Below are positions 1 to 63,999 of a stretch of 64,000 nucleotides of DNA, one piece after another. The notes beneath the pieces were generated by a model that saw nothing but the letters and a program-made list of their open reading frames with translations, had not been told where the DNA came from and made no database searches. The stretch is from a virus (taxonomy: Duplodnaviria > Caudoviricetes). Positions within the stretch are counted from its first letter, which is position 1; each line of letters starts with the position of its first letter. Position numbers and translations under genes: made by a program. The stretch spans positions 1 through 64,000 of the IMG/VR virus record IMGVR_UViG_3300028887_000080. One strand, 5' to 3'.

Positions 1-349
1 TATATCGAAATTCCAAACCAATAAAACAGATACAGACCATTCAGACTATCCAAACCATCCAACCATACAAACATCCAAAAAAAAAATATCAAAGCAAAAA
101 AAAAAAAACAATTCAAAAAAGTGGACCAAAAAAAAGGCAGACAACCAGGCATATTACTGATATAATTAGAATTTGGAGATTTTGCTTGTAACATTCCTTT
201 TTTCAATTTGATATATGTTGCGTTTATGTGTGATATATCATTGATATATCGTTTTTTGTTTTTAATATGCAGTTTGTGTATTTTTCTACGTCTTGTGTAA
301 AAAATGTCCTTCTTTTTGTTATATTAAAACAAATCAAATATTTCAGAAT

Positions 350-595
350 ATGGCAAAAACACAGTTAATCAAAATGGACGGCGTCATAACGGACGACCTG
401 TCGAACTGCAAGTACAAGGTTGTGCTTGACAATGGAAAGGAACTCATCGCCTATGTTTCAGGCAAGATGCGCAAGAACAACATCAGGGTTATGCCCGGCG
501 ACTCGGTTACAATCGAAATCAGTCCCTACGACCTTGACAACGGACGCATTGTTTACCGCAAGAAAGTGACGCAGGATGAGAATACTGAATGTTAA
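350..595 (+). CDS. infA: translation initiation factor IF-1
   Basis: MAKTQLIKMDGVI..LSN..LDNG..AYVSGKMRKNNIRVMPGD.V.IEISPYDL..GRIVYR is the IF-1 signature; ATG at 350. Confidence 0.95.
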   Translation: MAKTQLIKMDGVITDDLSNCKYKVVLDNGKELIAYVSGKMRKNNIRVMPGDSVTIEISPYDLDNGRIVYRKKVTQDENTEC

Positions 596-2222
596 ATGGC
601 GGAATTTCGCAGGGTGGGGGAACTCTTGGCGTGAGATAGACTTTGAGAAGCAGAAGGGTCTGACATTGCTGTGCGGTCGCAACGGCGCAGGAAAGTCGAG
701 CATTCCGAACCTGATTGTATATATGCTGTACGGTCAGGTTGACGGTTTCACGCAGAAAAGCATCCCAAACAGGGTGAACAGGCATTTCGAGGGCGTCATA
801 AGCATTGTCGCCGAAGGTCGTTCCGTCGTGATACGGAGGGGTCTTATGCCGAGTGTGTTTGCGGTGACTGTCGACGGCGAACCAATCGACACGGCAGGCA
901 AGGCGAATGTGCAGGCGTATCTTGAAACGGAAATATACAAGACCCCGTATAACATATTCAAGAACACCATCGCGCTTTCTATGGACACCTTCAAGTCGTT
1001 TGTGAAATTGTCGCCGTCTGAAAAGTGCGAACTCATAGACAGGATATTCGGGTATTCCATCATCAACACCGCCTCCGCGAAGGCAAGGGAGTGTGTGAAG
1101 GAAATCAAGTGCAGAATATCGGAAGGAGAGTCCTCGATAGAGGGGTACAACACAACCGTGTCCGAAATGGAGCGACGCATATCCACTATGGTCAATCGCC
1201 AAAACGAGGCGAAAGACGAACCTGACGAGACCAATGCGTCCGACATTGAAGGTCTGATAACCGAAAGCGTGAGGGACTACAACAGCATTGAGGAAACGAT
1301 AAGAACGCTTGAAGGTATGCGTTCCGACAATGCGATGAGCATTTCGGGTTTCCGTTCCGAACTCAAGCAGGTCGGGGACAAAATAAAACTTTTCGAGAGC
1401 GGCAAGTGCCCGCTTTGCGGTTCAGACCTCAACACACAGGAGCACATTGAATACGCGAACACGCTGAAAGACGCTTCAAAAAACCTGACGGACAACATTA
1501 TGAAATTCGGAAAGCGGGAAAAGAAGATTGGGGACAAACTCGACATTGCTGTTTCAAAGAAAAAGGATATTTGGGACAGGATAAACTCGTTGAGGATAGA
1601 GAAGGCGAAACTCGAATCAAGGCGAAAAGAACGCGATTTGGGGTATGAAGAGCAGATTTCCAACCTCCGTGCTATGTGCGACGAGATACACGCCAAAATC
1701 GCCCCGAAACAGTCCGAAATAGACAAGGACTGCAAGCGACTTGAAGTGATGAACACAGTATGCGGCGTGTTTTCAAACGACGGTCTGAAGCAGTATATTT
1801 CGGACATCTATGTCCCTATGATAAACGGATATGTCGAGGGCGCCTGCACACAACTTGGGATAAACTACAGGATTGTCTTTGACACAGGGTATGCGTGCTC
1901 TATCTGGTCGCTTGGCGAGGAGGTTCCCTACAGCACCCTTTCCACAGGCGAGCGGAAGAAGGTTGACATTGCCGTGACACTCGCTTTCCTGCAAATTGTC
2001 AAGAGCAGGGTGCCTGACATAAACATACTTTTCCTTGACGAGGTTCTGACCAACATAGATGTGGAGTCCTGCAACGATATGCTCCGCATTTTCAAGAAGT
2101 TTGCAGACGACAACGGGTTGAGCATATACATAGTGCACCACGCGAACCTCGATTCCGTCTATGCCGACAATGTGGTGGAGATTGAAAAGAGGAACGGGTT
2201 CTCGAATTTTGTCGGTGAATGA
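576..2222 (+). CDS. SbcC/gp46-like recombination exonuclease ATPase subunit
   Basis: Walker A GRNGAGKS, coiled coils, CPLC Zn-hook, signature LSTGE, Walker B LFLDE. Confidence 0.92.
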   Translation: MRILNVKWRNFAGWGNSWREIDFEKQKGLTLLCGRNGAGKSSIPNLIVYMLYGQVDGFTQKSIPNRVNRHFEGVISIVAEGRSVVIRRGLMPSVFAVTVDGEPIDTAGKANVQAYLETEIYKTPYNIFKNTIALSMDTFKSFVKLSPSEKCELIDRIFGYSIINTASAKARECVKEIKCRISEGESSIEGYNTTVSEMERRISTMVNRQNEAKDEPDETNASDIEGLITESVRDYNSIEETIRTLEGMRSDNAMSISGFRSELKQVGDKIKLFESGKCPLCGSDLNTQEHIEYANTLKDASKNLTDNIMKFGKREKKIGDKLDIAVSKKKDIWDRINSLRIEKAKLESRRKERDLGYEEQISNLRAMCDEIHAKIAPKQSEIDKDCKRLEVMNTVCGVFSNDGLKQYISDIYVPMINGYVEGACTQLGINYRIVFDTGYACSIWSLGEEVPYSTLSTGERKKVDIAVTLAFLQIVKSRVPDINILFLDEVLTNIDVESCNDMLRIFKKFADDNGLSIYIVHHANLDSVYADNVVEIEKRNGFSNFVGE

Positions 2223-2257
2223 GAATATAAATAATACATTCTAATATCCATTCTGAT

Positions 2258-2482: not shown

Positions 2483-2539
2483 AGTATTTGTATTTTTGTA
2501 ATTGCTTGATTTATCGTTCTTCGGAACATAAACCAACTC

Positions 2540-2592: not shown

Positions 2593-2620
2593 TCGCCTGA
2601 AAAACAAAACTGAAACAGAG

Positions 2621-2860: not shown

Positions 2861-4840
2861 ATGGCAATACCGAGAAACATAATAATACCCAATGCGGAAC
2901 GCAGCGACTACACCTGCCTTGTCCGTACGCAGAACGGTGTGTATGACAGAAAGGACATCCATACAAAGGTGTCCCGTGCGGACGGGAAGAAAACCACAGT
3001 CCTGATTGACGTGAACACAGGCGAAGTTCTGTACACAAGGAGCAGGAACCTTGTGTCCGAACAAAATTCCAAATTCCACATTTACTCCACCTGCACGGAT
3101 TTCGCAAAAAGCAAGAACGTGCCCCGTGTGAAGGTGAAGTCGGAAGGCAGGCACATCATAGACCTGATAAAGGAACACAGGAACTATTTGCAGTGTTCCA
3201 CAGGTTCGACACACAGGACAAGGGGAATCATCGCAGTCGACATAGACCGTATGTGCGGATGCGGTGATATGGATTCCATAAGGCGCGAGATAGAGGAGAG
3301 GTTGTGTGTGTGCGGCGACTTGGGGGTGCCTATGCCGAGTTCATACCAAGTGCACAAGACAAACGGGCACGTCCAACTGTTTTGGGTGCTTGACAATGAA
3401 ATCACGATAAACGAAGTGAAGACGGTCAATGTGGACTGCGGAGGCGAGAAGAAAGCGGCGTATTCATTCATAAAGAATGAAAATTGGGGGCGGTACATCA
3501 ACGCTATGCGTTTCCTTTCCACTGTTCTCGGAGGCGACCCGCAGTTCACAGGATGGCAGATTAAGAATATGTTCTTCACGCCTGACGTGAACGAGATGGT
3601 GTTCTTCGGGGAGTTCTGCACGATTTGGAGGAACGGTGACTGTTGGACTGAAACGGAACCAACCAAAGTGGAAACCTGCACCTTTGAAAGCATAGACTCG
3701 GTTGTGGATGTGTTTATGACAAACCCGTCGGACGAACTTTTGGACAACCTGATGGAGATTGTGTCAAAGCACGGCGGTTCAAGGGACTCGGTTGTTTTCG
3801 GTCTGAAAATGTGCAGCGGTTTCAGGATGAGCGCGGACGCAAAGTCTTTCTACAATGTCAGCGAAAGCGACGTGGATGAGTCCTGTGACGCAAATTTCAG
3901 GGTTGACGCCGAAATGGTCAATATGGGTCGCAACCAATTCGTGAGAATGAAAACGCTTGAGGTGATACGGAGAAAACAAGGGAAGGTCTCAAGGGAGTGG
4001 TGCTACGCTGTCGTCAAAAGGGAATTTGACAAGGCGGTCAGGGACGGTATAATCAAGGGAACCTTCGACCACGAGAGGGAATATACGGAGTCCGATTTCG
4101 ACAGGGATTTCGACAGCACCTATGACTACGGGGTGAACAACTACAAGAGTATGCAGTGGAGCGATGAACAGCGTGACACCGCCGCAAAGACAAACCGCTC
4201 TAAAAAGACAAGGAAACTCGCGCTTTTGATTGGCATACTTGAGGAACATCCGAACCTTATACGCAACACGGCGAAAAACAACAGGGAAATCATAGATATT
4301 TTCAAGGAATTGTATGACATTGAGATAAAGACAGTCAACACCGTTTCCAATTACAAGCGCGAACTTAAACTGAAGGACAAGCAGAAAAAAGTCGGCAAGC
4401 GTAACTACCGTTCAATCGCCAAACGCAGCGAATCTTCCGAAGAGTATTACGAAAGCGTGAAGAATGTATATGACAGACTCCTCGATTTCGGTTTTTTCGG
4501 TGATGTCGCGGGACGCGACACTTGGAAAAGGCGTGTCAGCAGCATAGGCGGAAACGATGTTTACAGGATTTACAGGGAAAGTTACAGTTTTTCATACAAC
4601 AAATGTTTATATGAACCGAAAGGAATACTTGAAACACCAAGATATACTTGGAGTAGCGAAACATATATGTTTTCCTCAATGGGATGTTGGAACAAAGAGC
4701 GTTTCGACGGACGAGACGCTTGCGGGGATTTACAGGGAGAGATGCCAAAACACTCCCCTGCACCACCTCTATCCGAAAGGGACGACCTATGTGGGTGTCC
4801 CAGCCAACGACCACCACTTCACGACGGCGTACCATTATGA
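2861..4840 (+). CDS. ColE2-type replicase/primase-like (AEP superfamily) protein with C-terminal HTH-like region
   Basis: IIAVDID...VPMPSSYQVHKTNGHVQLFWVL, LGGDPQFTG..IKNMF, GRN.FV, WSDEQR..AAK basic patch resemble plasmid Replicase/PriCT motifs; last ~77 codons overlap next ORF. Confidence 0.6.
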   Translation: MAIPRNIIIPNAERSDYTCLVRTQNGVYDRKDIHTKVSRADGKKTTVLIDVNTGEVLYTRSRNLVSEQNSKFHIYSTCTDFAKSKNVPRVKVKSEGRHIIDLIKEHRNYLQCSTGSTHRTRGIIAVDIDRMCGCGDMDSIRREIEERLCVCGDLGVPMPSSYQVHKTNGHVQLFWVLDNEITINEVKTVNVDCGGEKKAAYSFIKNENWGRYINAMRFLSTVLGGDPQFTGWQIKNMFFTPDVNEMVFFGEFCTIWRNGDCWTETEPTKVETCTFESIDSVVDVFMTNPSDELLDNLMEIVSKHGGSRDSVVFGLKMCSGFRMSADAKSFYNVSESDVDESCDANFRVDAEMVNMGRNQFVRMKTLEVIRRKQGKVSREWCYAVVKREFDKAVRDGIIKGTFDHEREYTESDFDRDFDSTYDYGVNNYKSMQWSDEQRDTAAKTNRSKKTRKLALLIGILEEHPNLIRNTAKNNREIIDIFKELYDIEIKTVNTVSNYKRELKLKDKQKKVGKRNYRSIAKRSESSEEYYESVKNVYDRLLDFGFFGDVAGRDTWKRRVSSIGGNDVYRIYRESYSFSYNKCLYEPKGILETPRYTWSSETYMFSSMGCWNKERFDGRDACGDLQGEMPKHSPAPPLSERDDLCGCPSQRPPLHDGVPL

Positions 4841-6388: not shown

Positions 6389-6736
6389 ATGAAAACCTAT
6401 AAGTACATTGTGAACGAGAAAAAGCGCACCGTGGTGTGCCTTCTCACTGTTACGAAAAAAGACGACGGCATTGAAAACACCGAACTTTACCGTGGCATTG
6501 CCAAATGCAACCCAGATGACACATTTGACGAAGAGGCGGGCAAGACGCTTGCAAGACGCAGGGCGATTCTTTCGGAATGCGAGTATGAACTCAACAAACT
6601 CGATTGGCGTTGGACTGACGAGGAAATCGAGAACTACCTGACTACGGTCACACGGGCAAAGAACTGCAAGCAATATCTCCGCCGCAAGATTCACGAGTTG
6701 AAAGTGGAGATAAACAAAACAGTCCGTCCTGAATAA
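6389..6736 (+). CDS. phage hypothetical protein
   Basis: GIAKCNPDDTFDEEAGKTLARRRA motif common in phage proteins. Confidence 0.7.
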   Translation: MKTYKYIVNEKKRTVVCLLTVTKKDDGIENTELYRGIAKCNPDDTFDEEAGKTLARRRAILSECEYELNKLDWRWTDEEIENYLTTVTRAKNCKQYLRRKIHELKVEINKTVRPE

Positions 6737-6754
6737 TATATCACCGATATATCA

Positions 6755-7482: not shown

Positions 7483-8454
7483 ATGAGCAGTATAGAACTT
7501 TTGAAAAAGATAATCGGATTCGACAAGGATTGGTGTTACCAATACCAACGCAGGATTGACACTTTGGCACAGGACAAGGTGCGGTATGGTTGGGACGACG
7601 AGTACATTAGGAACATAAAGTTGTCCGACTTTGAGTTTATGCCTCTTGAGAGTGCCGCAGAAAAGGCGTCCGCCACAGAGTTCATAAAACGCTATGAATG
7701 GTTGGGCACGGTCGGCAGTTATCCGACACATTGGTTCGGTGCCAAATACAAAGGGATTCTCGGAGGCGTTGTCATAATGTCTATGCCGAACTCGTTCAGC
7801 ACGCTGCTCGGTGAAAGGACGAGGAAAATCGAACGCCTCATATCAAGGGGCGCGAGTGCAAGTTGGACTCCGTTCAACCTCGGAAGCAAGTTCCTTATGT
7901 GGTGCATAAGATATATGGTCGACAACACCGACTACAGACTTTTCACCTGTTACAGCGACACGCAGGCGAAGGAGAAGGGTTCCATCTACCAAGCGCTTAA
8001 TTTCTATTATCTCGGAAAGGACAGCGGGGCGTCTGTAAGGTGCGTAAACCCCTACAACCCGTCGAAGATAGTCACCGACAGAGCGTTCAGGGCGAGGAGT
8101 TTCTATAAGAGATATGCGAAGGACTTGGGTATTGTGTGGCAGAAGAATTGGAACAACGACCAAAGGATGCTGTGGGAGAATGTGCCCGACGACATAGAGA
8201 GAAAACTGCGAGAGTATTCAAAGGATATGTATGAGAAATCGGTGAAGTTGAAGTTTCCTCCGAAGCACAAATACGCATTTGTTCTCGGACGGGACAAACG
8301 CGAGACCAATGCCCTGCGGAGAGAGTTTCTTGAGCGCAACAAGGTGTATGAATACCCGAAGGAAAGGGTTGTGGACAATGTGGAGTTCGACAATGAATAC
8401 AACGAGATTATATCAGAGAGCGACAAGTATGACAAGTCGCACAGACTGTTTTGA
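7483..8454 (+). CDS. Mom-like GNAT DNA-modification enzyme
   Basis: FIKRYEWLG, ISRGA...NLGSKFLM, TCYSDTQAKEKGSIYQALNFYYLG matches Mom-family core; directly upstream of polymerase. Confidence 0.7.
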   Translation: MSSIELLKKIIGFDKDWCYQYQRRIDTLAQDKVRYGWDDEYIRNIKLSDFEFMPLESAAEKASATEFIKRYEWLGTVGSYPTHWFGAKYKGILGGVVIMSMPNSFSTLLGERTRKIERLISRGASASWTPFNLGSKFLMWCIRYMVDNTDYRLFTCYSDTQAKEKGSIYQALNFYYLGKDSGASVRCVNPYNPSKIVTDRAFRARSFYKRYAKDLGIVWQKNWNNDQRMLWENVPDDIERKLREYSKDMYEKSVKLKFPPKHKYAFVLGRDKRETNALRREFLERNKVYEYPKERVVDNVEFDNEYNEIISESDKYDKSHRLF

Positions 8455-11329: not shown

Positions 11330-11403
11330 AAGTTAAAAACGAAAACTTTTTTGTTATATTAAATATATCAACGATATATCAACTTAAATCAAACCAAAAC
11401 AAT

Positions 11404-15305: not shown

Positions 15306-15366
15306 AAACAAAATTTCCATTATATTCAAGAAAAAAAAACAAAAAATATATTAACGATATATCACT

Positions 15367-17520: not shown

Positions 17521-18672
17521 ATGAAATATACTTTAATAATAGACGGTCATAATTTTCTGTTCAGAAGTCTTTACGTCCTTCCGCAAAAGAAGGGCGTGAA
17601 GATTTTGTCAGACAAAGAGTCGAAGGATATGTTCGTGTCGAAACTTGAACAGAACATAAATGCCGTCCTGCGGGATATGGAACCTGTTATCGACAGGTGC
17701 ATCATCGCCCTTGATTCCCAATCTTGGAGAAAGAGCATAGATTCGGACGTGGACTACAAGGGCACGCGACATCAGGAGGACACCATCGACTGGGGCGGTT
17801 TCTCCGAATGTATGCACACCTTTGTCGACGGTCTTGGGAAGTACAACATAACCGTTTCAAAGACAAAGATGGCGGAGGCGGACGACCTCATCTTCTATTG
17901 GTCGCACCTCCTCAACAACAAGGGAATCCCTGTAATCATCTATTCGAGCGACAAGGATATGTTGCAGATTGTCGGAGTGACGGACAAAAAGACCGACACG
18001 ATACTCTATTCGGACGTGACGAAGAAAATCTATGTCCCTGTGGGGTTTGAGAAACTCGCAAAGAACGATTGCGTCAGTGTATATGACACATTTGTCGCTG
18101 GCGGGATTTACGACATCTACGACCGTTTCGCACATCTGAAAGTGCTTGTAAGCAAGCGCAAACTTGAAATGATTGAGGTCGACGCCGACAGGTTCAGGTT
18201 CGTCAAGGTGCTGACAGGCGACAAGAGCGACAATATATCCTCGATATATTCATACGAGAAAAACGGTCGCACGTTCAATGTCACGGAGGCGAAGGCGGAA
18301 AAGATACTTGAGGATTTCACATCGAAGGTAGGTGCGCTGAACAGCGAATACCTGTATGTGGACGACACCATAGGCGTCCTTGCGGAGTCCTGTTCAAATG
18401 TTCTCAAACTCGAAGGCGAGTGCGACAACCTTGCGAAAAACATCAGACGGAACGTGAAGTATATGATGCTTTCGCTGAACGCGATACCGAACGAGGTCGC
18501 AGACAATATGCTTTCCGACATACGGGAACTTGCGAAAAAGATGAAAAAGGTGGATTTTTCGTCGGTGCATACTGCGCCTGAATCAATCATAAAGAAAACA
18601 GCAGGCATATTCAAGGGCGTTGACGCCTCCGATATGTCGTTTATAAAACCTGACAAAAATTCATTGTTCTGA
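17521..18672 (+). CDS. 5'-3' exonuclease / T4 RNase H-like flap endonuclease
   Basis: IIDGHN, SWRK, YKGTR, EADDLI, SSDKDMLQ, LTGDKSDNI. Confidence 0.9.
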   Translation: MKYTLIIDGHNFLFRSLYVLPQKKGVKILSDKESKDMFVSKLEQNINAVLRDMEPVIDRCIIALDSQSWRKSIDSDVDYKGTRHQEDTIDWGGFSECMHTFVDGLGKYNITVSKTKMAEADDLIFYWSHLLNNKGIPVIIYSSDKDMLQIVGVTDKKTDTILYSDVTKKIYVPVGFEKLAKNDCVSVYDTFVAGGIYDIYDRFAHLKVLVSKRKLEMIEVDADRFRFVKVLTGDKSDNISSIYSYEKNGRTFNVTEAKAEKILEDFTSKVGALNSEYLYVDDTIGVLAESCSNVLKLEGECDNLAKNIRRNVKYMMLSLNAIPNEVADNMLSDIRELAKKMKKVDFSSVHTAPESIIKKTAGIFKGVDASDMSFIKPDKNSLF

Positions 18673-22657: not shown

Positions 22658-22766
22658 AGTTTGGTTGTTTTGAGATATTTATATGCAGCGATATATCAAT
22701 GATATATCGACTTTGGTGTCGTATAAATATAGTGTGATTCTATTGTTTAACCAAAATCCAAAAACT

Positions 22767-26027: not shown

Positions 26028-26846
26028 ATGGCAACGAAAGAGAGTTTGAGCATCACCGAGTCAATCGGAGGCAGAAGATATTACAACATAGACGAAAACG
26101 GCGTACTTCATAAACTGCCGAGCGTCACAACCATTCTTTCCGCTATGACAGACCAAAGCGGTCTTGAGGCGTGGAGAAACAGGGTAGGTCACGAGGAGGC
26201 GGACAGGATAACCACGTTCAGTGCCAACAGGGGAACGTGTATGCACCAAAAACTTGAGTATTGGTTCACATCGGACATCGTCGACAAACAGGCAAGGTTG
26301 ATTGACGTGAACCGAAAGATGGATGTGTTTGTGAAGGAGAACGGTTACACCGCCGAAGAACTCGCCTGCGGAAACAAACTGTTCAACAGTCTTTATGTGT
26401 GCGGTTTTTTTGAAAGGGTGAAGTCGATAATCGAAATGGAGGATACCCTGTATTCAATGGCATACGGAGGGTATGCGGGACGCGTTGACTGCGTGTATGA
26501 GAATCAGGACGGACTTCCAGTGCTGCTCGACTTCAAGACCGCGCGGCACAAGAAACGCCCTGAATACATCACCAACTACTATATGCAGTTGAGCGCGTAC
26601 TATCTTGCCTATTACCAAATGTTCGGCGTGAAACTCGACCACGCGGAACTTTGGATTGCGGTGGAGAACGATGTCCCGCAACTCGTGTATGTCACATACG
26701 AGGAACTGAAAAGTTGGTTGAACCATTTTCTCAAACTCGTCGACGGATACCACAAAAAATACGACTGTGTGCTTGAGGAGCATTTGAAGTCGCTTCAAGT
26801 TCCTGTTATTCAGAACCTCAAGGACGTCGTTGCAAGAAAATTATAA
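26028..26846 (+). CDS. PD-(D/E)xK exonuclease (lambda-exo/Cas4-like superfamily)
   Basis: PSVTTIL, RGTCMH, YAGRVDCV, LDFKT, QLSAY. Confidence 0.88.
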   Translation: MATKESLSITESIGGRRYYNIDENGVLHKLPSVTTILSAMTDQSGLEAWRNRVGHEEADRITTFSANRGTCMHQKLEYWFTSDIVDKQARLIDVNRKMDVFVKENGYTAEELACGNKLFNSLYVCGFFERVKSIIEMEDTLYSMAYGGYAGRVDCVYENQDGLPVLLDFKTARHKKRPEYITNYYMQLSAYYLAYYQMFGVKLDHAELWIAVENDVPQLVYVTYEELKSWLNHFLKLVDGYHKKYDCVLEEHLKSLQVPVIQNLKDVVARKL

Positions 26847-26880
26847 ATATATCAATGATATATCTACAATAAAAATCACT

Positions 26881-27546
26881 ATGATAGCATTACCGATTAT
26901 TTCAATAGCATTGTGCTTCGCCTACATCATATACATTCTTTTCAAATATGGTGTGCCCACGTCGATTTCCGAAACCTATTACCTTCTGCCGAACAAATGG
27001 GATTGGATGTTCTCCGCTTGGTGTGTTCTCACTTCGGTTCCATTCGGTTTTTGGTGGTACACAATCTCTCCGAAATCCCTCTGTTGGATTCCGATTGTGA
27101 TTGTTCTCGGTATGACGATGATAGGCGTCAGTTGCCGCTACAAGTCTGGACCGAAAAAGGACGACAACTATGTGCCGAACCTTGCGATGGACGACCTCCT
27201 GAAGGAAAAGAAAGCGGTCAAGAAATCATTCAAGGACTTCATCAAGGAACTTATTGAAAAATTCAAACCCGCCAACTTCCTGAAGTATGGATGGGCGCGT
27301 CCGATTCACTATATCAGTTCGCTTGTCGTGATAACGCTTGCAACCGTGTATGTCTGCATTATGACACCCATCGCCATAGCATACGTCGTGCTTGCCTATC
27401 TTATGTTCATACTTATCGGAATGAACGTCCCTGCGGTTTACAACAAGGACTATTCCGTGGACGTCGATAACAAGGCGTGGATATTCTTTATGGAGGTGGT
27501 TTGCTTCCTGCAACTTTTCATCTTCGTGTGGATTAGCATCATCTAA
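26881..27546 (+). CDS. multi-pass membrane protein
   Basis: ~6 hydrophobic segments; GVPTSISETYY. Confidence 0.75.
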   Translation: MIALPIISIALCFAYIIYILFKYGVPTSISETYYLLPNKWDWMFSAWCVLTSVPFGFWWYTISPKSLCWIPIVIVLGMTMIGVSCRYKSGPKKDDNYVPNLAMDDLLKEKKAVKKSFKDFIKELIEKFKPANFLKYGWARPIHYISSLVVITLATVYVCIMTPIAIAYVVLAYLMFILIGMNVPAVYNKDYSVDVDNKAWIFFMEVVCFLQLFIFVWISII

Positions 27547-35742: not shown

Positions 35743-35771
35743 AAAACCTTCCGAAATCGGAAGGTTTTTTT
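35743..35771 (+). terminator. intrinsic terminator
   Basis: AAAACCTTCCG-AAAT-CGGAAGGTTTT. Confidence 0.75.
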
Positions 35772-35973
35772 CTGTCAAGATATATCACTGATATATCATC
35801 ATTTTATACAAATGCCTGTTTTTCAGTCGTTACGGTAGAAATGTTATTTTTAGGTGTGTTGTAAAACAGCACATATAAATATATAACAGGAATGCGGAAA
35901 TCTTTTGGATTATAGAAGAAAAGAATCCGCCGAAAAAGATTAGCATTCACACAAAGAATATACTTTAAGTATT

Positions 35974-37815: not shown

Positions 37816-37846
37816 TAAGGGGTTGTGATTTCACAACCCCTTTTTT
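37816..37846 (+). terminator. intrinsic terminator
   Basis: AAGGGGTTGTG-ATTT-CACAACCCCTT + T-tract. Confidence 0.8.
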
Positions 37847-37966: not shown

Positions 37967-39910
37967 ATGAACAGAGATGAATTGAAACGATTGTTGCTGC
38001 TTCCGAAATCGGAAGGCGGTATAAACCAAATCCAAGAAAGCGGGTTTGCGAAAATGTTTCCTGAAGAATATGCCGAATTGTGCGGCATTGACTTTCCGAA
38101 CGGGTTTACATTCAGGCAGAAACTTTATCATTGGTTGAACGGTGATTTTGGTCTTGCGCTCGGATTCTGCAAGAAATGCGGAAAGCGTTGTTCATTCAAG
38201 AACCTGTCAAAAGGTTATTTTGATTATTGCAGCAATTCCTGTGCGCAGAGTTCCGATGAGAACATAAAAAAAGTGAAAGCGACCAAACTTGAAAGGTACG
38301 GTGAAGAGAACTACAACAACAGGGAAAAATCAAAACGTACTTGTATGGAGGCGTATGGTGTTGACAATCCGTTGAAATCCGGCGATGTTGTGGAAAAGGG
38401 AAAACGCACCAAACTTGAAAGATACGGCGATGAGAATTACAACAACAGAAAAAAGGCGTCGGACACAAAACTTGAAAAGTATGGTGATTCGGCATATAAC
38501 AACCAACAGAAATACAAACAAACCTGCATTGAGAAATACGGAGTGGAAAACGTGTTCCAACTTCAGTCGGTGAGTGAGAAAATACACGACACTATGATGG
38601 ACAAATATGGTGTCGGGCATTCGATGCAGTCTCCTGTTTTTCAAGAAAAGGCGAAAGACACGAACCGCAAGCGATACGGGAGCGACTATGTTATGCAGAA
38701 TGATGAGGTGAAGCATAAGTCCCGTGACACCAATATTGAGAAGTACGGTCACCCTTGCAGTTTGCAGAATGACGAAGTTAAGGAAAAGGCGAGGAACACT
38801 ATGATTGAAAAGTATGGTGTCGAGCACAATTCGCAGACGAAGGAGTTTTGGGAGAAATACAAAGACACTTGTGTGGAGAAATACGGCGTGGAGCACCCTT
38901 CTATGAGCGAAGACGTCAAGGACAAGATGAAGCATACTTGTATTGAACGCTACGGCGTGGAGTATGCGTCGCAGAGCGATGAGTTCAAGAAAAGGGTGAT
39001 GGAGACGAACCGCAGGCTGTACGGGGTTGATTGGTATTGTATGACTTCGGAGTGCAGGTTGCACGGAAACGACAGCAAGGTGAACCTGAATTTCGCCAAG
39101 ACGCTTGAGGATTCAACAATACCGTTCGAGCGTGAATTTCCGTTGGAAGGGTATTCTTACGATTTCAAGGTCGGAAATGTGCTTATAGAACTCAACCCGA
39201 CCATAACCCACAATTCAGCGGTCAACATATATGGTGGGAACCCGAAAGACGAGAACTATCACTTTGCGAAATCGAACACTGCGGAATTGCACGGACTCTC
39301 CTGCATTCATATTTGGGATTGGGACGACAAGGCGAAGATAGTCCGTATGCTGAAACCCAAAACAATTCTGTATGCAAGGAAGTTGGTTCTGCGTGAAGTC
39401 GACGCCGTTTCCTGCGACCGTTTTTTGAACGAGCACCATTTGCAGAATACTTGCAAGGGGCAGTCTGTCTGCTTGGGTCTGTATATGGACGATGTGTTGG
39501 TTGAGGTTATGACATTCGGCAAACCGAGATACAACAAGAATTACGAATGGGAACTTTTGAGGCTTTGCACACATTGCGATTACAAGATTGTAGGCGGAGC
39601 GGAACGATTGTACAGTCATTTTGTGAAGTCATACATCCCGAAATCAATCATAAGTTATTGCGACAACAGCAAGTTCAACGGCGGAGTGTACAAAAGACTC
39701 GGAATGTCGTTGCTGCGCCTGTCCAAACCGAGCAAACATTGGTGGAACGGAAAACGGCATATCACGGACAACTTTTTGAGGCAGCGCGGGTTTGACCAAC
39801 TGTTCGGCGCCAACTACGGAAAGGGGACGGACAACAACGAACTTATGCTTGAACACGGTTTTTTGCCAATCTATGATTGTGGACAGATGACTTTTGTTGT
39901 TGAATTTTAA
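37967..39910 (+). CDS. Hef-like homing endonuclease paralog 2
   Basis: same architecture and near-identical C-terminus to 33016 ORF. Confidence 0.75.
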   Translation: MNRDELKRLLLLPKSEGGINQIQESGFAKMFPEEYAELCGIDFPNGFTFRQKLYHWLNGDFGLALGFCKKCGKRCSFKNLSKGYFDYCSNSCAQSSDENIKKVKATKLERYGEENYNNREKSKRTCMEAYGVDNPLKSGDVVEKGKRTKLERYGDENYNNRKKASDTKLEKYGDSAYNNQQKYKQTCIEKYGVENVFQLQSVSEKIHDTMMDKYGVGHSMQSPVFQEKAKDTNRKRYGSDYVMQNDEVKHKSRDTNIEKYGHPCSLQNDEVKEKARNTMIEKYGVEHNSQTKEFWEKYKDTCVEKYGVEHPSMSEDVKDKMKHTCIERYGVEYASQSDEFKKRVMETNRRLYGVDWYCMTSECRLHGNDSKVNLNFAKTLEDSTIPFEREFPLEGYSYDFKVGNVLIELNPTITHNSAVNIYGGNPKDENYHFAKSNTAELHGLSCIHIWDWDDKAKIVRMLKPKTILYARKLVLREVDAVSCDRFLNEHHLQNTCKGQSVCLGLYMDDVLVEVMTFGKPRYNKNYEWELLRLCTHCDYKIVGGAERLYSHFVKSYIPKSIISYCDNSKFNGGVYKRLGMSLLRLSKPSKHWWNGKRHITDNFLRQRGFDQLFGANYGKGTDNNELMLEHGFLPIYDCGQMTFVVEF

Positions 39911-39921
39911 TTCTGTTGTTT

Positions 39922-41655
39922 ATGATGAATGCGGAATGTGACACTACTATGGAAGAACTCAAAAATTTTCTCAATGCCAAACCCGTGTACTTGCAGGAAA
40001 GCAAATTTGCAGTGAAGTTTCCCGATGAGTATGTCACATTGTGCAGTTGGAAGTTTCCCGACGGGTTCACATTCCAGCAGAAACTTTATCATTATGTCAA
40101 TGGCGACAATATATTCAGACTTGGATTGTGTCCCACTTGTGGAAAGCGTTGCAGGTTCAAGTCATTTGGCAGAGGTTACTTTGAGTATTGCAGCAAATCC
40201 TGTATCTATACAAAGGAGCGTTCCGAAAAGTGCAAGGAGACAAAACTTGAACGATATGGTGACTCCAACTACAATAACATAGAAAAGGCGAAGCGTACTT
40301 GTATTGACAGATATGGTGTGGAGAACGTCTCGCTTGTTGAGAGCATATCGGAGCAGAAATCGGAAACAAGACGTAACAGGACATCGGATGAGAAAGCGGC
40401 GACAAGGGAGAAAATAGCACGGACGTGGGCGGCAAAGACAGATGATGACGTAAACAGGCATATAGAGAGTATCCGACAGGGAAAACTTGAAAAGTATGGG
40501 GACGTCAATTTTTCAAATCCGCAAAAGACAAAGGATACTAAACTTGAAAGATATGGGACACCAACCTATGTGAACCCTGAAAAAATGGTCGCGACAAAGC
40601 GTGCGAAGGCATTGGATGCAGACCCGAACATAATCAGTTTCAATACTGACGGCAGCGTGGTCAGGAGATGTGATAATCCATCCTGTGACAGGTGTGATGA
40701 AAAGTGCTATACCACATTCACGAGACTTCATTATGACAGAATCAGACTTGGGTGTATCACCTGCACCAAACTAAATCCCATTGACAGGCACACGAGCGGA
40801 GGTGAGAATGAGTTGTATGAATATGTCAGGGGGGTGTACGGAGGAACCATAGTGAAGAATGACAGGGGTGTCCTCGGAGGTCAGGAACTTGACATCTATC
40901 TTCCTGACAAGAAACTCGCATTTGAGTTCAACGGGTTGTATTGGCACAGTGATTTATACAAGGACAAGAACTATCACTTTGAGAAATCAAAATCCTGTAT
41001 GGAGAAAGGTGTGAGACTTGTCCATATATGGGAGGATGATTGGCGTTACAGGAGGGATATTGTGGAGAACCTCATATCAGGAATATTGGGAAAGCACAAT
41101 ACTTACATAAACGCAAGGAAATGTTCGGTGGGAAAGGTGGATGCAAAAACAGCGCGAGTGTTTTGTGATAAATACCATATACAGGGTTATGTGAACTGTG
41201 CTGTCAGATATGGTATTTTCTATAATGGAGAACTTGTGATGGTCTCGTTATTTGGAAAGCGCAGGCGGATTTGCGGAGGTGTCCCGAAAGAGAATGTTTG
41301 GGAACTTTACAGGATGTGTTCGGTGTTCGGAACGAGAGTTCGCGGAGGTGCGAGCAGATTGCTTGTGCATTTCATCAATGATGTCAGACCGAACTCCATA
41401 GTAACTTTTGCCGACTCCTGTATTTCTGACGGTGGAGTCTATGAGAAAATGGGTTTTGTGAAGGACGGTGTTGTGCCGCCATCCTACTATTGGGTTGTTG
41501 GCATTGAACGTGTGCCGAGATATAGGTTCCAAAAGTCAATGCTTGAGGAGTGCAAGGACAACTCTGACCTTACGGAGGATGAGGTGATGCGGTCAAGAGG
41601 ATGCCTCAAAATATGGGATGCGGGAAAAGTGAGATACATCATTGATATATCGTAA
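39922..41655 (+). CDS. Hef-like homing endonuclease paralog 3
   Basis: T..ERYG repeats, SGGE, ELDIYLPDKKLAFEFNGLYWHS, HIWEDDW, WELYRMC, VTFAD, IWDAG. Confidence 0.8.
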   Translation: MMNAECDTTMEELKNFLNAKPVYLQESKFAVKFPDEYVTLCSWKFPDGFTFQQKLYHYVNGDNIFRLGLCPTCGKRCRFKSFGRGYFEYCSKSCIYTKERSEKCKETKLERYGDSNYNNIEKAKRTCIDRYGVENVSLVESISEQKSETRRNRTSDEKAATREKIARTWAAKTDDDVNRHIESIRQGKLEKYGDVNFSNPQKTKDTKLERYGTPTYVNPEKMVATKRAKALDADPNIISFNTDGSVVRRCDNPSCDRCDEKCYTTFTRLHYDRIRLGCITCTKLNPIDRHTSGGENELYEYVRGVYGGTIVKNDRGVLGGQELDIYLPDKKLAFEFNGLYWHSDLYKDKNYHFEKSKSCMEKGVRLVHIWEDDWRYRRDIVENLISGILGKHNTYINARKCSVGKVDAKTARVFCDKYHIQGYVNCAVRYGIFYNGELVMVSLFGKRRRICGGVPKENVWELYRMCSVFGTRVRGGASRLLVHFINDVRPNSIVTFADSCISDGGVYEKMGFVKDGVVPPSYYWVVGIERVPRYRFQKSMLEECKDNSDLTEDEVMRSRGCLKIWDAGKVRYIIDIS

Positions 41656-41704
41656 AAAATACATTGTTTTTTGTTATATTTAATAATAACAAAATTTATT
41701 GAAT

Positions 41705-44492: not shown

Positions 44493-44560
44493 CGGAAAGC
44501 GCTGATATATCAATGATATATCCGCATATAAATATATGCGGAGCAATCATAGACATAATT

Positions 44561-48524: not shown

Positions 48525-48587
48525 AAAAATACTCCTGCTTTAAGGCAAGTCAGGTGAACCTTTGATATATCATTGATATATCGCTTG

Positions 48588-52198: not shown

Positions 52199-52210
52199 TT
52201 ATAGAATTTG

Positions 52211-52281
52211 TGGACATTACGGGAATCGAACCCGCTTTCACGCCTCCCGTTGCAGTGGGACACGCTACTGCCGTTATGCCC
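52211..52281 (-). pseudogene. atypical tRNA-like RNA (8-nt loop ACUGCAAC, Cys/Ala-like)
   Basis: GGGCAT/ATGTCC, T arm GCGGG-TTCGATT-CCCGT, shortened D arm. Confidence 0.5.
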
Positions 52282-52292
52282 TTGTTGTTATG

Positions 52293-52364
52293 TGTCACGG
52301 ATGAGACTCGAACTCACAATCCCCTGATTAAAAGTCAGGTGCATCGCCATTATGCTACCGTGGC
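52293..52364 (-). tRNA. tRNA-Lys(UUU)
   Basis: CCTGA-CTTTTAA-TCAGG; C2:A71 mismatch; 5' end overlapped by endonuclease ORF. Confidence 0.88.
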
Positions 52365-53189
52365 ATTTTTTATTTTTTGTATTATATTTTTAATGAATCG
52401 TTCTTTACATTCTTTTGGCATTTTTTTATACCGAGACCATCTTATTCTAAATAAACACGTCCATCCATTTTTTTGTAATACTTCAGTTCGTTTTTTGTCG
52501 TGTTTAACAATACGCTTGTCCAAATAATGTTGTTCCCCATCAACTTCAAAATATGTTTTTGTTATTGGAAATGCAAAATCCAAAAAATACCCAAATTGAT
52601 AATAATTTTGTTCATATTCAATATGTTCATCATTCAAAATTTGCTTAAAATACTTTTCACAATAACTATCACCGTGTGAATGATGATTTAATACATAAGG
52701 AACTTTATTCGGGTGCTTTTTCAAATACTTTTTTCTAATATCAGAAAGGTGCTGTTTTTCTTGTTCAGTATGCTTTATTCCTTTTTGTGGACTTTTTAAT
52801 TCACCGTTTTCATAACGGAGTTTAAGTGAAATTGCTGCTTGTTTAACACGCTCATCTGTCTCTTTTGTTAAACCTTTGTTCCACGGACGCTTACCCATCA
52901 TACCATTACGATATACTCTATTTTTGTTTTGTGGACACTTACATTCGTGTGCTTTAAGTGATTTTACACTATAACATTGTTTTCCACAGTATTTACAAAC
53001 AAGACTTTCATCTTTGTCGTAATGATAATTTTCATTACTATGTTTTTTTGAATATACCGCATAACCACAAACGTGATTTTCCAAAGGTTTTCTATTTGGA
53101 TTCAACTTACAAGTTCTTTCGTGAATACCCAATGCACAAGAACGTTTTAACATTTTGTTACAATACCTACAAATATACATCATTTCCAA
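52350..53189 (-). CDS. free-standing homing endonuclease (Zn fingers, NUMOD3-like motifs, DUF559/Vsr-like nuclease)
   Basis: CRYC..HERTC, PWNKGLTKE, KGIKHTEQEK, YFLDFAF..EVDGEQH..HDKKR..GW..RIRW; AT-rich. Confidence 0.8.
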   Translation of the reverse strand: MEMMYICRYCNKMLKRSCALGIHERTCKLNPNRKPLENHVCGYAVYSKKHSNENYHYDKDESLVCKYCGKQCYSVKSLKAHECKCPQNKNRVYRNGMMGKRPWNKGLTKETDERVKQAAISLKLRYENGELKSPQKGIKHTEQEKQHLSDIRKKYLKKHPNKVPYVLNHHSHGDSYCEKYFKQILNDEHIEYEQNYYQFGYFLDFAFPITKTYFEVDGEQHYLDKRIVKHDKKRTEVLQKNGWTCLFRIRWSRYKKMPKECKERFIKNIIQKIKNATVA

Positions 53190-54806: not shown

Positions 54807-55158
54807 ATATTGAAAAAAATCTCAAAAAAAAATCGGAGGTTGCTTTCACATACCTCCGATTCTATTTGGTTTCAGTGGGGTATGGTCATTCTTCCTTTGA
54901 GTATTCATTATCTTGTTTCTGTCCGAAACTTGCACCATTGCCGTCAAAAATGCCGCAATACGCCTGTTTCGGGGATATGTGCTTCCCTGTTTTTGGCGTG
55001 CGGTTGTCGGTTGCGATGTTTGTTTTGGAAAGAATCATTGAGTTCTTTTTATTATTTTTTCGGAATATATTTATACAAGTGTTTTTGCACTGTTTCCAAT
55101 GGGTGTGAAAATGGTGCAAAACCTCTGAAAATGAATATATCGCAGATATATCTGACAT

Positions 55159-55190
55159 AAAAAAAGCGTGTGGGTGCACACACGCTTTTT
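55159..55190 (-). terminator. intrinsic terminator
   Basis: AAAAAGCGTGTG-GGTG-CACACGCTTTTT-type hairpin with A/T tracts. Confidence 0.7.
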
Positions 55191-55211: not shown

Positions 55212-57542
55212 TTACTTTTCAGTGTCGTTGAGTTCTATGTAGCATTTTTTCAGTTGGTCGTAATCCGGTTCAATGCACCAAGACAGGTATCCAAGTAGTT
55301 GTTCTTTGATGTCGTGCTCGTATATGACAAACATAATTTTGTTTTTCATAGGCAGTAGTTTCTTCAAAGGAGTGACGTCCCAAAAGCCGCCGTCAGTCAA
55401 AAACAACCATACTGAATTTCTGTCGCTCTGTCTTGTTTTCAAGATATAGTCAACACAGTCTTTCACTTCGGTTCCACCACCTGCGTCGTTGTTCGTTGCC
55501 ATTTCGATGACAAGTTTCATTGCTGCCTCCTTGTTTTTCTTCACCTCATCGGCAACCATATATATACCTGATTTGAGGTCTATTGTGTCTGCGAACGGGA
55601 TGAGTGTGATTCCGCTGTATTGGAGTTTTGTACAGCAATTCACCAAAGTGTCGGCAAAGAGTTCAACAACGTCAAGGTTGACAGACCCTGATGTATCCAC
55701 AAACACGTTGATGTTTTGTGGGGCGGCGTCTCCCTTCGGGTGATATGGGCGCATAAGGTCGTGTGCAAGCACTCGCTTGTCACCCCATCTTGTACGGGTG
55801 TTGTCTTTGAGTTTGTGTTTTCTGTTGGCATAGATTGTGTTTGCTTCAAGGAATATCTTTACGATTTCATCCCACATTTTATGGATAGTGGTATCGTTCA
55901 TCTTTATCCTTCTGCAAATTTTCCCGATTGCTGATTTGGGTTTTTGTCTGATGATGTTGTTTCGCAATTCTTTCACCTCTTCCCTTGAAATGACGTTCTT
56001 TGAAGCGACTTCGGTGAGTGTTTCTTCAATTTCCCTGTCGCTGAAACCGCTGTTTTTCAAAGCGCCTTTCAGTTTCTCCTTAACTTCGGACTGCTTTACG
56101 ATTTTTCCGACTGCTGTCGGTTTGAATTTATAATCACCCCTTATTTGCGGACGAAGTTCCTTGCGCTTTTGGTTTTTGTTTTTTCTTGCGGCAGACCTGT
56201 TTATTTTTCCGCCGCCGCCTGCACCAAGTCCTTTTTCACCGTAATTCTTTGAATTTCCACCGCTTCCGCCGTTTGTGCGTTTGCCGTCACGATTGCCTTC
56301 TTTGTTTTGTTGACTGCCTTGACTTCCCTGTTGGTCGCTTTGCTGACTGCCTTGCTGACCGCCTTGTTGGTTGTCTTGCTGACCGCCTTGCTGACTGCCT
56401 TGCTGACTGCCTTGTTGGTTGTTTGAAAAATCACCCATAGCGTTGTCGGCGGAATTTACGGCGTCGTCTGCCGATTGTTGTGCATTTTCATTTTCATCGC
56501 GTGCTTTCTGTGCTTCCCGTCTTGCCTTGTTTACATCGCCGTTTTCAGACGCTTCAAATGCCTTGTCCGCGGCTTCTTGTGCGGCGTTTGCTGCATCCTG
56601 CGCCTTGTCAGCGAGTTCCTGTGTTTTATCGGCGAGTTCCTGTGCCTTGTCCGCTTTGTTTTTTGCATCTTTGTATTTGGGGGAATCTTCGCCGAAACGG
56701 GATTTCGCCTTTCTTGCATTGTCTCTTGCGTCATCGGCAAGTTCCTGTGCGTCGTTTGCCGCGTCCTGTGCGTCGTTTGCCGCGTCCTGTGCTGCGTTGG
56801 CTGCGTTCTGTGCTGCACTTGCGGCATCCTGTGCATTCATTTTTGAAACATCCCTGTTGTCGGAGTCGCTTCCGTATTTTTCAAGGGATTCCTTTGCCGC
56901 GTCCTGTGACATCCAAGATTCCATAGCGGCGTCCTGTGCTGCGTTTTTCGCATCCTGTGCTGCATTCTGCGCGTTCTTCGCTTCTTTTCTTGCAGTTTCG
57001 TCGTCACCGTTTTGTGCGGCGGATTTTGATTTGTTTGCTGCATTCTGCGCAGCGTTTGCTGCGTCCTGTGCTTCTTGTGCTGCTTTTTTTGCATCTTTTG
57101 CCGATTCGTTTGCTTCATCGGCAAGTGCCTTTGCGTCTTTATACTCATCGGAGCTTTCGCCAAATTCAGACTTGATTTCCTCTGCTGTGTTCTGTGCGTT
57201 CTCGGCTGCGTTCTTTGCGGACTGTGCTGCGTTGGATGCCTTGTCAGCATCTTTCTGCGCCCTGTCCGCTGCATTCTGTGCCTCGTTTGCTGCGTCGTCC
57301 GCGTTCATTTCCGAAACATCGGCGTCGTTGACGTCGTTGCTTTCACCCTGACCATTTTGTGGAACGATTGGTTTTTCCTTGTCTGTTTCTGGTTTTGGTT
57401 CGTTGTTTTGGTCTTCGTTGGAACCTCCGCCAAGCAATGCGTTTTGAAGTTCACTCACGGCATCGTCAAACCCCTGTTCGAGACCACTTTCGTATGTCGA
57501 GTATTCTTTTGGTGCAACTGAATTTTCATTTATTATTTTCAT
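55212..57542 (-). CDS. vWA (MIDAS) protein with long Ala-rich coiled coil and Gln/Gly linker
   Basis: VFVDTSGS, GGGTE, FLTDG; heptad AQDAAN repeats; QQGS repeats. Confidence 0.85.
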   Translation of the reverse strand: MKIINENSVAPKEYSTYESGLEQGFDDAVSELQNALLGGGSNEDQNNEPKPETDKEKPIVPQNGQGESNDVNDADVSEMNADDAANEAQNAADRAQKDADKASNAAQSAKNAAENAQNTAEEIKSEFGESSDEYKDAKALADEANESAKDAKKAAQEAQDAANAAQNAANKSKSAAQNGDDETARKEAKNAQNAAQDAKNAAQDAAMESWMSQDAAKESLEKYGSDSDNRDVSKMNAQDAASAAQNAANAAQDAANDAQDAANDAQELADDARDNARKAKSRFGEDSPKYKDAKNKADKAQELADKTQELADKAQDAANAAQEAADKAFEASENGDVNKARREAQKARDENENAQQSADDAVNSADNAMGDFSNNQQGSQQGSQQGGQQDNQQGGQQGSQQSDQQGSQGSQQNKEGNRDGKRTNGGSGGNSKNYGEKGLGAGGGGKINRSAARKNKNQKRKELRPQIRGDYKFKPTAVGKIVKQSEVKEKLKGALKNSGFSDREIEETLTEVASKNVISREEVKELRNNIIRQKPKSAIGKICRRIKMNDTTIHKMWDEIVKIFLEANTIYANRKHKLKDNTRTRWGDKRVLAHDLMRPYHPKGDAAPQNINVFVDTSGSVNLDVVELFADTLVNCCTKLQYSGITLIPFADTIDLKSGIYMVADEVKKNKEAAMKLVIEMATNNDAGGGTEVKDCVDYILKTRQSDRNSVWLFLTDGGFWDVTPLKKLLPMKNKIMFVIYEHDIKEQLLGYLSWCIEPDYDQLKKCYIELNDTEK

Positions 57543-61425: not shown

Positions 61426-61456
61426 ATCTTTGTCTTTATTATATTGTATGTTAAGG

Positions 61457-63463: not shown

Positions 63464-63561
63464 ATCTTTGTGTTTATTTTTTTATTCAAAAACAAAAATG
63501 CGGCACATTGTGCCGCATATATTTATATGATTTGAAAATTCAGAGATATATCAGTGATATA

Positions 63562-63999
63562 TCAATCCTTTTTGGACTGCCTTCGCTCTGACAACCAATC
63601 CATATAGTCGTCAAGTGCTGTGGGACAGTATTTTTCGATGAGGTCTTTGCTCCACCATTGGAAGTGACCGCTCTGCGGCATAGGTTCGTTGAATGAAACC
63701 TCTATGCCCATTTCGTTGTAGAGTTCATCGAACCCCTCAAGACCGAAGTCGTATCCGAGTCTCGCCGCCACCATAAACTTTTGGATGAGGTCGAACAGTT
63801 TCGGTTTTGAGTTCTCGGAAGGAACGCCTCCGCAGTAGTAACGCCAATCGAGCATAAGTTTGTAGTCCTTCTGTGTATACTTCATCTGCGTGATATACTC
63901 GAACGCAAGTCCAAGTCTGTTGAGCATTTCCTTGTGCACTTTCGTCGCCTTGATGCTCCGCTCGACCGACGTGTTCAGGATTTTGTCGAACTCTTCGTC
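63562..63999 (-). CDS. hypothetical protein (5' end outside window)
   Basis: frame is open to the window edge. Confidence 0.6.
   Translation of the reverse strand, partial: DEEFDKILNTSVERSIKATKVHKEMLNRLGLAFEYITQMKYTQKDYKLMLDWRYYCGGVPSENSKPKLFDLIQKFMVAARLGYDFGLEGFDELYNEMGIEVSFNEPMPQSGHFQWWSKDLIEKYCPTALDDYMDWLSERRQSKKD

Follow-up and report, generated by a model that had tools for sequence, protein, structure and literature searches.

What appears to be the closest described analogue of the element reported here is the set of 17-bp palindromes carried by Cluster O mycobacteriophages, which are likewise unexplained. Our subject is a 19-bp double palindrome, GATATATC-N3-GATATATC, that recurs along a stretch of 64,000 nucleotides (hereafter the window) that opens a virus contig of 124,221 bp, IMG/VR record IMGVR_UViG_3300028887_000080 (labelled G000). 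The contig is ~39% complete according to CheckV and belongs to a jumbo myovirus of the bovine rumen that is T4-like and lytic in appearance; the full genome would measure roughly 320 kb, and ~60% of it lies outside the contig. The motif is real, lineage-specific, evenly spread and under purifying selection at the DNA level. With a probability of about one half, we consider each copy to be a duplex-DNA site for a symmetric, putative phage-encoded protein that acts genome-wide.

The Cluster O repeat, TGTTCGG-NNN-CCGAACA, is present in 34 copies in Corndog and has invariant 7-bp arms around a 3-bp spacer biased toward A/T; copies lie within genes and in short gaps between them, also close to gene starts, their positions are mostly kept in relatives, and host genomes lack them (PMC4351075). 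In that study, dimeric proteins were put forward as the binders, and a role in transcription was considered unlikely (PMC4351075). The rumen phage motif shares the fixed inverted arms, the variable 3-bp spacer, the genome-wide distribution over intergenic and coding DNA, the conserved positions and the absence from host genomes. However, the arms of the Cluster O repeat are 7 bp long, GC-rich and not self-palindromic, its copies are denser (approximately one per 2 kb, versus one per 6 kb here), neither even spacing nor embedding in terminators was reported for it, and its bearers are Mycobacterium siphoviruses rather than a rumen jumbo myovirus.

Cluster A stoperators of the L5 gp71 type comprise more than 20 short identical sites distributed genome-wide, many lying in small gaps between genes at a distance from promoters, at which one phage protein stops elongation; each is a 13-bp asymmetric sequence bound by a monomer, with an orientation that follows transcription and is required, and the system serves lysogenic immunity (PMC9283540). 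The rumen phage sites are similarly numerous and dispersed, but they are palindromic rather than asymmetric, the half that carries the degenerate positions is independent of gene direction, and no repressor-type helix-turn-helix (HTH) or integrase family was seen among the scanned proteins of the contig, which represents ~39% of the genome. KorB of plasmid RK2 is loaded at dispersed palindromic OB sites, from which it slides as a CTP-dependent clamp, silencing promoters at distances of up to 1.5 kb and also partitioning DNA (PMC11790492); such a mechanism does not depend on a constant register with promoters. Palindromic sites at variable distances from promoters are likewise present in the rumen phage, and KorB/ParB serves us as a mechanistic model rather than as a family to which the phage system would belong. 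Those proteins have a ParB_N CTPase domain, for which a six-frame search (PF02195) of the 124-kb contig, ~39% of the genome, gave no match, and their site is a single palindrome of 13-16 bp, in contrast to the double 8-mer at 11-bp spacing described here.

The geometry is reminiscent of the operators of Arc, Mnt and CopG, which contain two subsites approximately one turn apart, with a dimer on each and the tetramer on one face of ~20 bp. The 11-bp subsite geometry is present in the phage motif; however, Arc, Mnt and CopG act through single operators, found at one or two promoters instead of genome-wide, and no ribbon-helix-helix (RHH) protein was detected in the contig save a sub-threshold VapB-antitoxin match (E 0.006) in 26881-27546. 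DNA uptake sequences (DUS), uptake signal sequences (USS), repetitive extragenic palindromes (REP) and bacterial interspersed mosaic elements (BIME) are short tags read genome-wide, evenly spread and tolerant of orientation, and they are often inverted repeats in or beside terminators. These differ in being features of host chromosomes, with hundreds to thousands of copies and with ComP, gyrase/IHF or RAYT as readers, and we know of nothing comparable in a phage. The flanks of the 19-mer show a weak pyrimidine/purine preference and no conserved tetranucleotide of the REP/RAYT kind. A literature search on the octamer GATATATC returned nothing relevant.

Sequence, geometry and spacing of the motif

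The original prediction listed 13 copies of the double palindrome in the window. The motif is present at all 13 coordinates, although only six copies are exact; five others carry one mismatch and two carry two (Table 1). The whole contig contains 21 sites in 124 kb, or approximately one per 6 kb, and their 19-bp consensus is RATATATY-N3-GATATATC. The arms are fixed apart from positions 1, 5, 8 and 19, and the spacer is variable. Most deviations consist of a G1>A change, which is found in 8 of the 21 sites. Spacer positions 9 and 11 favour A and T, respectively (0.71 in the contig), symmetrically about the central base.

Background composition does not account for these counts. In dinucleotide shuffles of the window, exact matches averaged 0.00, with none of 100 shuffles reaching the six observed, and matches with up to three mismatches averaged 0.11 as opposed to the 14 observed; the latter, loose scan recovers all 13 sites plus one overlapping artefact at 63534. 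Nearly every GATATATC octamer in the window (18 of 19) is paired with another, and isolated octamers occur at chance level. Relaxed half-sites pair solely at a distance of 11 bp, start to start, both in the contig and in 215 kb of related contigs, which bears out the constant 3-nt spacer proposed originally.

Gaps between sites in the window range from 2.9 to 8.9 kb, exactly as first described, and those between the 21 sites of the contig have a mean of 5.95 kb, a minimum of 2.47 kb, a maximum of 12.2 kb and a coefficient of variation (CV) of 0.42. Under random placement (20,000 placements; uniform, intergenic-position and intergenic-block models), the mean CV was 0.89-1.44, and a value as low as that observed arose in at most 0.005% of cases (P<1e-4). 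The sites are over-dispersed, meaning that they are more even than chance would provide, yet they are not periodic.

One asymmetry was noticed among the variant copies. Changed positions fall 11 times in the left half and once in the right (contig plus strand), irrespective of gene direction, and the variant sites concerned are 6735, 11362, 15345, 18232, 26846, 41633, 55134, 68729, 84043 and 104597. The degenerate half does not track gene direction (seven sites against three), and the next site past the contig end, L091:1216 (L-numbers denote metagenome contigs), has the opposite polarity, being a right-half variant. This polarity is not robust and may be due to chance.

Lineage distribution and positional conservation

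Among the 2.9 million contigs of IMG/VR, 41 were found to carry one exact copy each. The 185,579 prokaryote genomes searched (596 Gb) yielded 31 single copies of the form with an A-W-T spacer and no multi-copy case, a result that rules out a host-genome origin of the motif. Given that no prokaryote genome in this set holds multiple copies, the reader of the site is probably phage-borne. A metagenome scan uncovered at least 113 stretches with the motif; among the matches listed, ~36 either have protein similarity to G000 or to its relative G001 (IMG/VR contig 3300028888_000071) or originate from the same rumen samples; many of this group have 2-4 sites. The other listed matches are unrelated single copies or tandem 11-mer arrays, and this description includes the Ga0126342 matches, which were considered as phage relatives and rejected. 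Tandem arrays of the 11-mer GATATATCATT (L058, L072, L074, L117, L128, L161, and other Ga0126342 and marine contigs) fit the pattern by construction, and the contigs that bear them are probably eukaryotic and unrelated to the phage.

The motif is a trait of one sub-lineage. The overlap of G001 with G000 amounts to only 28 of 146 proteins (median identity 57%), and exact and loose scans together with dyad and k-mer counts revealed neither a copy of the motif nor an analogous dyad in G001, but coding tandem repeats only. Several genes of G001 (L048-L054) are made of such repeats, with 18-nt (hexapeptide) and 42-nt units that dominate its k-mer spectrum; they lie at 32.4-32.7, 46.3-47.5, 48.9-49.5, 55.7-57.6, 65.1-65.9 and 94.2-94.7 kb. 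The motif is also absent from 41.6 kb around the capsid gene of LR756500.1, a phage with a GC content of 25% and a capsid protein that is 43% identical.

Other related phages keep the motif, and collinear relatives with ~40-60% protein identity hold sites at the same junctions. The site upstream of the IF-1 gene (232) recurs in L149 and L139, and neither of these syntenic relatives has a second site upstream of it as a counterpart to the possible 14th copy suggested at the window start, where the contig itself begins. At the 6735 junction, between the stop codon of an Rv2632c-like gene and the next ATG, a site is found also in L149, L203, L204 and L207, and the spacers across the five lineages are ACC, AAG, AGG, AGT and ATT. 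The site at 71198, between convergent WYL_2 and sigma genes, recurs in L145. Flanking DNA is only 46-70% identical even after gapped optimisation, which is near random, while the 16 specified bases retain 14-16 matches to the consensus (14 solely in L207).

Conservation extends into coding DNA. The site at 68729 occupies codons 444-450 of its gene and the equivalent codons in L145, where the spacer and the last base alone differ, and the surrounding protein segment is otherwise variable. The site at 18232 is the least certain member of the set and may in part be a by-product of coding; G001 has the same exonuclease peptide encoded by other codons. Sites can also shift relative to their neighbours. 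One lies upstream of gene 84063-84329 and downstream of its orthologue in L122, another ends coding sequence (CDS) 39922-41655 and precedes the start of the orthologue in L102, and a third stands before the capsid gene in G000 and after it in L167.

Surroundings of the sites and candidate functions

By the open reading frame model made here, 14% of the contig is non-coding, and 18 of the 21 sites are intergenic or extend just a few bases into the end of a gene. The remaining three (18232, 41633 and 68729) are located within a CDS, the first two as originally described. A start codon lies 0-3 nt downstream of sites 6735, 15345 and 84043, and 9-16 nt downstream of sites 26846, 114099 and 119244. 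Strong terminator hairpins adjoin or precede 35779 and 55134 and, as judged by eye, also 71198, 96279 and 104597, whereas sites 44504 and 63545 have a stop codon on one side and a late promoter on the other. The sites of the window are collected in Table 1.

Table 1. The 13 palindrome sites of the window, with their form and immediate surroundings
Site	Position	Form	Surroundings
1	232..250	exact; spacer ATT	99 nt upstream of IF-1 gene
2	6735..6753	one mismatch (A1); spacer ACC	overlaps stop of gene 6389-6736; next ATG 1 nt on
3	11362..11380	one mismatch (A1)	directly adjoins TTTTTTGTTATATTA promoter-like element
4	15345..15363	two mismatches (A1, T8)	15 nt past ATTATATTCAA element; 3 nt before ATG of NUDIX gene
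5	18232..18250	two mismatches (A1, T19); weakest match	in 5'-3' exonuclease CDS; encodes conserved peptide NISSIYS
6	22690..22708	exact	flanked by two divergent TATAAATA late-promoter boxes
7	26846..26864	one mismatch (A1)	left half on TATAAATA box and stop of upstream gene; next ATG 16 nt on
8	35779..35797	exact	10 nt past 11-pair terminator hairpin 35743-35768; 76 nt before capsid late promoter
9	41633..41651	one mismatch (C5)	last 23 nt of CDS 39922-41655; 14 nt before TTTTTTGTTATATT element
10	44504..44522	exact	11 nt past gene stop; 4 nt before TATAAATA box upstream of amidase gene
11	48564..48582	exact	minus-strand tRNA array, between tRNA-Ser and tRNA-Ala
12	55134..55152	one mismatch (A1)	8 nt from bidirectional terminator hairpin of 12 pairs (55161-55190); hairpin at 3' end of minus-strand gene 55212-57542
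13	63545..63563	exact	overlaps stop of minus-strand gene 63562-64461; 17 nt upstream of minus-strand TATAAATA box

Several classes of promoter word occur near the sites. The contig has 38 TATAAATA boxes, one of them at 35874-35881 before the capsid gene (18 other plus-strand and 18 minus-strand places were noted), and it encodes a gp55-like late sigma factor (phrog_234) at 80050-80415. RNA-library contigs of relatives were placed on the 30-50 kb region; such contigs cannot reveal transcript ends, and the library may also contain DNA. Those on the capsid gene start at 35896, just past its box, and end at a strong terminator at 37817-37842. Together, the boxes, the sigma factor and the extent of these contigs suggest that this rumen jumbo phage, of Bacteroidota type, transcribes its late genes in the T4 manner. 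Further promoter-like words are present at 11340-11361, 41665-41680, 15319-15329 and elsewhere. Among these words, TTTTTGTTATATTA resembles an extended -10 element (TGnTATATT), ATTATATTCAA has 14 copies, and G001 carries a fused promoter word, TTTTGTTATATTCAA. A sigma-70 family protein with an RpoS-like region 2 and a region 4 match is encoded on the minus strand at 71259-71864, and at least two paralogues reside on sister contigs (L062:1918-2532 and L130:325-936); a palindrome site lies 30-330 nt from each of the three.

From the pattern of sites we infer that a protein binds, that the phage encodes it and that binding has an effect. Each palindrome would be bound by one two-fold symmetric protein, either a homodimer that contacts consecutive major grooves at a distance of 11 bp or a dimer of dimers resembling Arc or Mnt. 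The one-turn geometry resembles that of an RHH tetramer, and equally that of one HTH dimer bound to a palindrome of 19 bp. Recognition of duplex DNA by a symmetric protein, as the original prediction supposed, is retained as the best reading, but with A9 and T11 arranged symmetrically there is no support for its choice of a dimer of dimers over one dimer. The lineage would maintain approximately one site per 6 kb, placed where 19 fixed bp are tolerated, namely at gene junctions, terminator apexes, promoter flanks, in the tRNA array and, rarely, in variable parts of a CDS. The bound protein could nucleate or load a protein that spreads or slides along the DNA, or it could mark where transcription units end, as a boundary or as a roadblock in both directions. 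Given the lack of a fixed register with any promoter class and the even spread of the sites, genome-wide action is most likely, and a classical promoter-occluding repressor is less likely. We also tentatively entertain the proposal that the palindromes might be evenly spaced loading or anchoring points of a jumbo-phage chromosome machine, serving either a clamp that slides or spreads and silences or insulates transcription units, or as a DUS/Chi-like self-DNA tag that would let a phage nuclease, recombination or packaging system distinguish the ~320-kb chromosome from host DNA.

Several observations weigh against a duplex-DNA site for a genome-wide phage protein. G001 and LR756500.1 manage without the motif, which is therefore not essential to this type of phage. 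Approximately one third of the sites in the contig lie within 25 nt of a start codon, an arrangement that would also fit regulation at the RNA level or local regulation. Gaps of 0.8-1.9 kb occur in relatives and in L091 past the contig end, and thus the even spacing is not strict. Among 46 distinct sites of relatives, 11 are located at the apex of hairpins with 6-8 extra GC-rich pairs and a T run, a placement that would fit the same RNA-level or local regulation. Lastly, no convincing candidate for the binder was found in the contig, which holds ~39% of the genome, and small DNA-binding proteins often escape Pfam. A Pfam search of ~130 predicted proteins of the contig revealed no HTH, RHH, AbrB or HU family, the sole matches of DNA-binding type being two sigma-type proteins, small zinc ribbons, an HNH protein and the sub-threshold VapB-like match.

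PHROGs comparisons of the small proteins adjacent to sites identified no binder either. The Rv2632c/DUF1876-like protein, whose gene's stop codon overlaps site 6735, was considered and set aside as not being an evident DNA binder. The 659-aa protein at 2861-4840 was initially taken for a ColE2-like Rep that might use the palindromes for priming; it has no match in PHROG, Pfam or PDB sequences, and we see no basis for this idea. Roles in condensation, segregation, packaging or ejection, also raised at the outset, are purely conjectural.

Alternatively, the motif could be the operator of a global phage transcription regulator, a repressor or activator that would time early, middle and late genes, through promoters or by stopping elongation, in the manner of P1 C1, the L5 stoperators or the repeated operators of SPbeta type. 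We judge this to be possible but improbable. A promoter-like element (TATAAATA, TTTTTGTTATATT or ATTATATTCAA) lies within ~100 bp of 16 of the 21 sites, at least 11 sites of the family are 14-30 nt upstream of TTTTTGTTATATT (site 11362 adjoins one), sites 114099 and 119244 lie between a ATTATATTCAA box and an ATG, each of the three paralogous sigma-factor genes adjoins a site, and a palindrome would stop transcription from either direction. However, the high density of promoter-like boxes places any intergenic element close to one, and the distances from sites to these words vary between overlap and over 90 bp, with no helical phasing, which agrees with the initial observation that there is no fixed position relative to promoters and speaks against strict coupling to transcription start sites. 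Several sites follow terminators or are situated between tRNAs, between convergent genes or within a CDS, and sites switch gene side in relatives. At the junctions of G001 that are orthologous to sites of G000, the same promoter boxes are kept and the palindrome is absent, and hence promoters do not need it. A hairpin in RNA or single-stranded DNA, serving as a 3'-end stabiliser, a terminator helper, a processing site in the style of those cut by RNase III in T7, a translational operator beside start codons, or a priming or cruciform signal, is in our view unlikely. The motif can form an 8-bp stem with a 3-nt loop, the terminator-embedded sites of relatives fold at -17 to -20 kcal/mol, sites 35779 and 55134 adjoin strong terminators, and the site at the 6735 junction stands 0-1 nt before the ATG in five lineages. 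Yet the lone stem of a perfect site is weak (-5.3 kcal/mol as RNA and -3.1 as DNA), and the commonest variant, G1>A, breaks the closing pair with all other bases kept and folds at only -1.5 to -1.7 kcal/mol (RNA). Transcription follows the plus strand at six of the eight G1>A sites, whose RNA then has an A-C mismatch; the wobble-preserving change C19>T occurs once, alongside G1>A, and no compensatory variation in the stem is present among the sites. Thus, it is the sequence that is invariant, rather than pairing being kept as the sequence drifts. The hairpin also leaves the A9/T11 preference unexplained because these bases cannot pair in a 3-nt loop, a single direction of transcription gives no reason for self-palindromic halves, and one RNA-library contig (from a library that may hold DNA) passes through site 41633. 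By itself the motif has two GC pairs and no T run, unlike an intrinsic terminator, and no site of the contig has six or more uninterrupted flanking pairs past the motif. On the grounds of the hairpin loss caused by G1>A, the lack of compensation and the A9/T11 symmetry, recognition of duplex DNA by a symmetric protein is favoured. About one quarter of the relatives' sites sit within terminator hairpins and so connect the motif with transcription-unit ends, which goes beyond the original prediction. We read this placement as accommodation, in which the terminator loop would be one of few places that tolerate insertion of a palindrome, as in the case of DNA uptake sequences; a genuine functional link of the motif to termination is also conceivable.

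A selfish or recombination element, whether the target or footprint of a phage nuclease or recombinase (a homing or nicking endonuclease, or a REP/RAYT-like system) or a hotspot for cassette shuffling, is less probable still. A hotspot role has been proposed for the PeSL elements of T4-type phages and noted for the Cluster O repeats. The genome encodes HNH-type and phrog_3339 'homing endonuclease' paralogues, a GIY-YIG-like protein and two TnpB proteins, indels between the contig and its relatives adjoin site 84043 (L122) and lie near site 6735 (L149), and in three cases, described above, the site changes sides of a gene. Nonetheless, there are no conserved flanks, target duplications or terminal structures around the 19-mer, and no Y1 (TnpA/RAYT) transposase was detected in the contig, where TnpB (OrfB_IS605 / Cas12f TNB) alone was found. 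Long collinear stretches (L145 and L149) keep their sites without rearrangement, and neither the even spacing nor the deep positional conservation is expected of a selfish spreader. Finally, the (AT)3 core of the motif and the AT-rich intergenic DNA, which is full of TATA-like promoter boxes, might suggest a product of chance or composition. This explanation has a negligible probability and is already refuted by the shuffle counts, by the rarity of the motif in IMG/VR and in prokaryote genomes and by its conservation at orthologous positions.

Gene content of the phage and implications

Sequencing runs that contain DNA of this phage derive from gut metagenomes of bovine and other ruminant animals. 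The gene content of the contig includes a tail sheath, an SbcC-like protein, a NUDIX protein, a 5'-3' exonuclease, an amidase, a family B DNA polymerase, a T4-type prohead protease, RimK, Thg1 and two copies of TnpB, and the capsid protein is ~32% identical to those of Prevotella Lak megaphages and 80% identical to that of G001. A homologue of translation initiation factor IF-1 is encoded at 350-595 (Pfam eIF-1a, E 2e-21; 85-94% identity in relatives). A Mom-like protein is encoded at 7483-8454, with counterparts at L204:6958-7929 and L207:1664-2635, and membership of the Mom family hints at a possible base modification of the phage DNA. An intein is present in the family B DNA polymerases of L204 and L207. 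Four paralogues of 580-660 aa match the PHROG 'homing endonuclease' families phrog_3339/559 (33016-34998, 37967-39910, 39922-41655 and 91619-93514 of the contig), and three of them flank the major capsid gene. The minus-strand tRNA array comprises 26 genes; a tmRNA call by ARAGORN within it (52210-52592, tag GQAYC*) overlaps tRNA-Lys and is probably false.

The contig is a fragment, and its 3' end is extended by L091, a metagenome contig of 2.9 kb (L091:1-127 corresponds to 124095-124221). Circular closure through L091 was considered and is ruled out, as the contig start is matched by only a 44-nt repeat of 93% identity. A 144-kb contig from the same sample series, Ga0265299_10000072 (L150, L114, L106 and L142), bears the same motif and may be a further part of the same ~320-kb genome.

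Short palindromes distributed genome-wide have been noticed in few phage groups, and, apart from the stoperators, their purpose is unexplained. This rumen jumbo phage adds an unrelated, uncultured example with unusually clean constraints, namely self-palindromic halves one turn apart, positions kept over 40-60% protein identity, even spacing and accommodation in terminator loops. The presence or absence of the motif among sister lineages makes the binder findable by phylogenetic profiling, given complete genomes. Should the reader prove to organise the chromosome, to silence genes over long distances or to mark phage DNA as self, it would show how phages manage very large genomes and would also provide a compact, orthogonal protein-DNA pair for Bacteroidota. 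If the palindromes were indeed anchoring points or self-DNA tags, they would represent a genome-wide system of cis-elements of a kind new to viruses.

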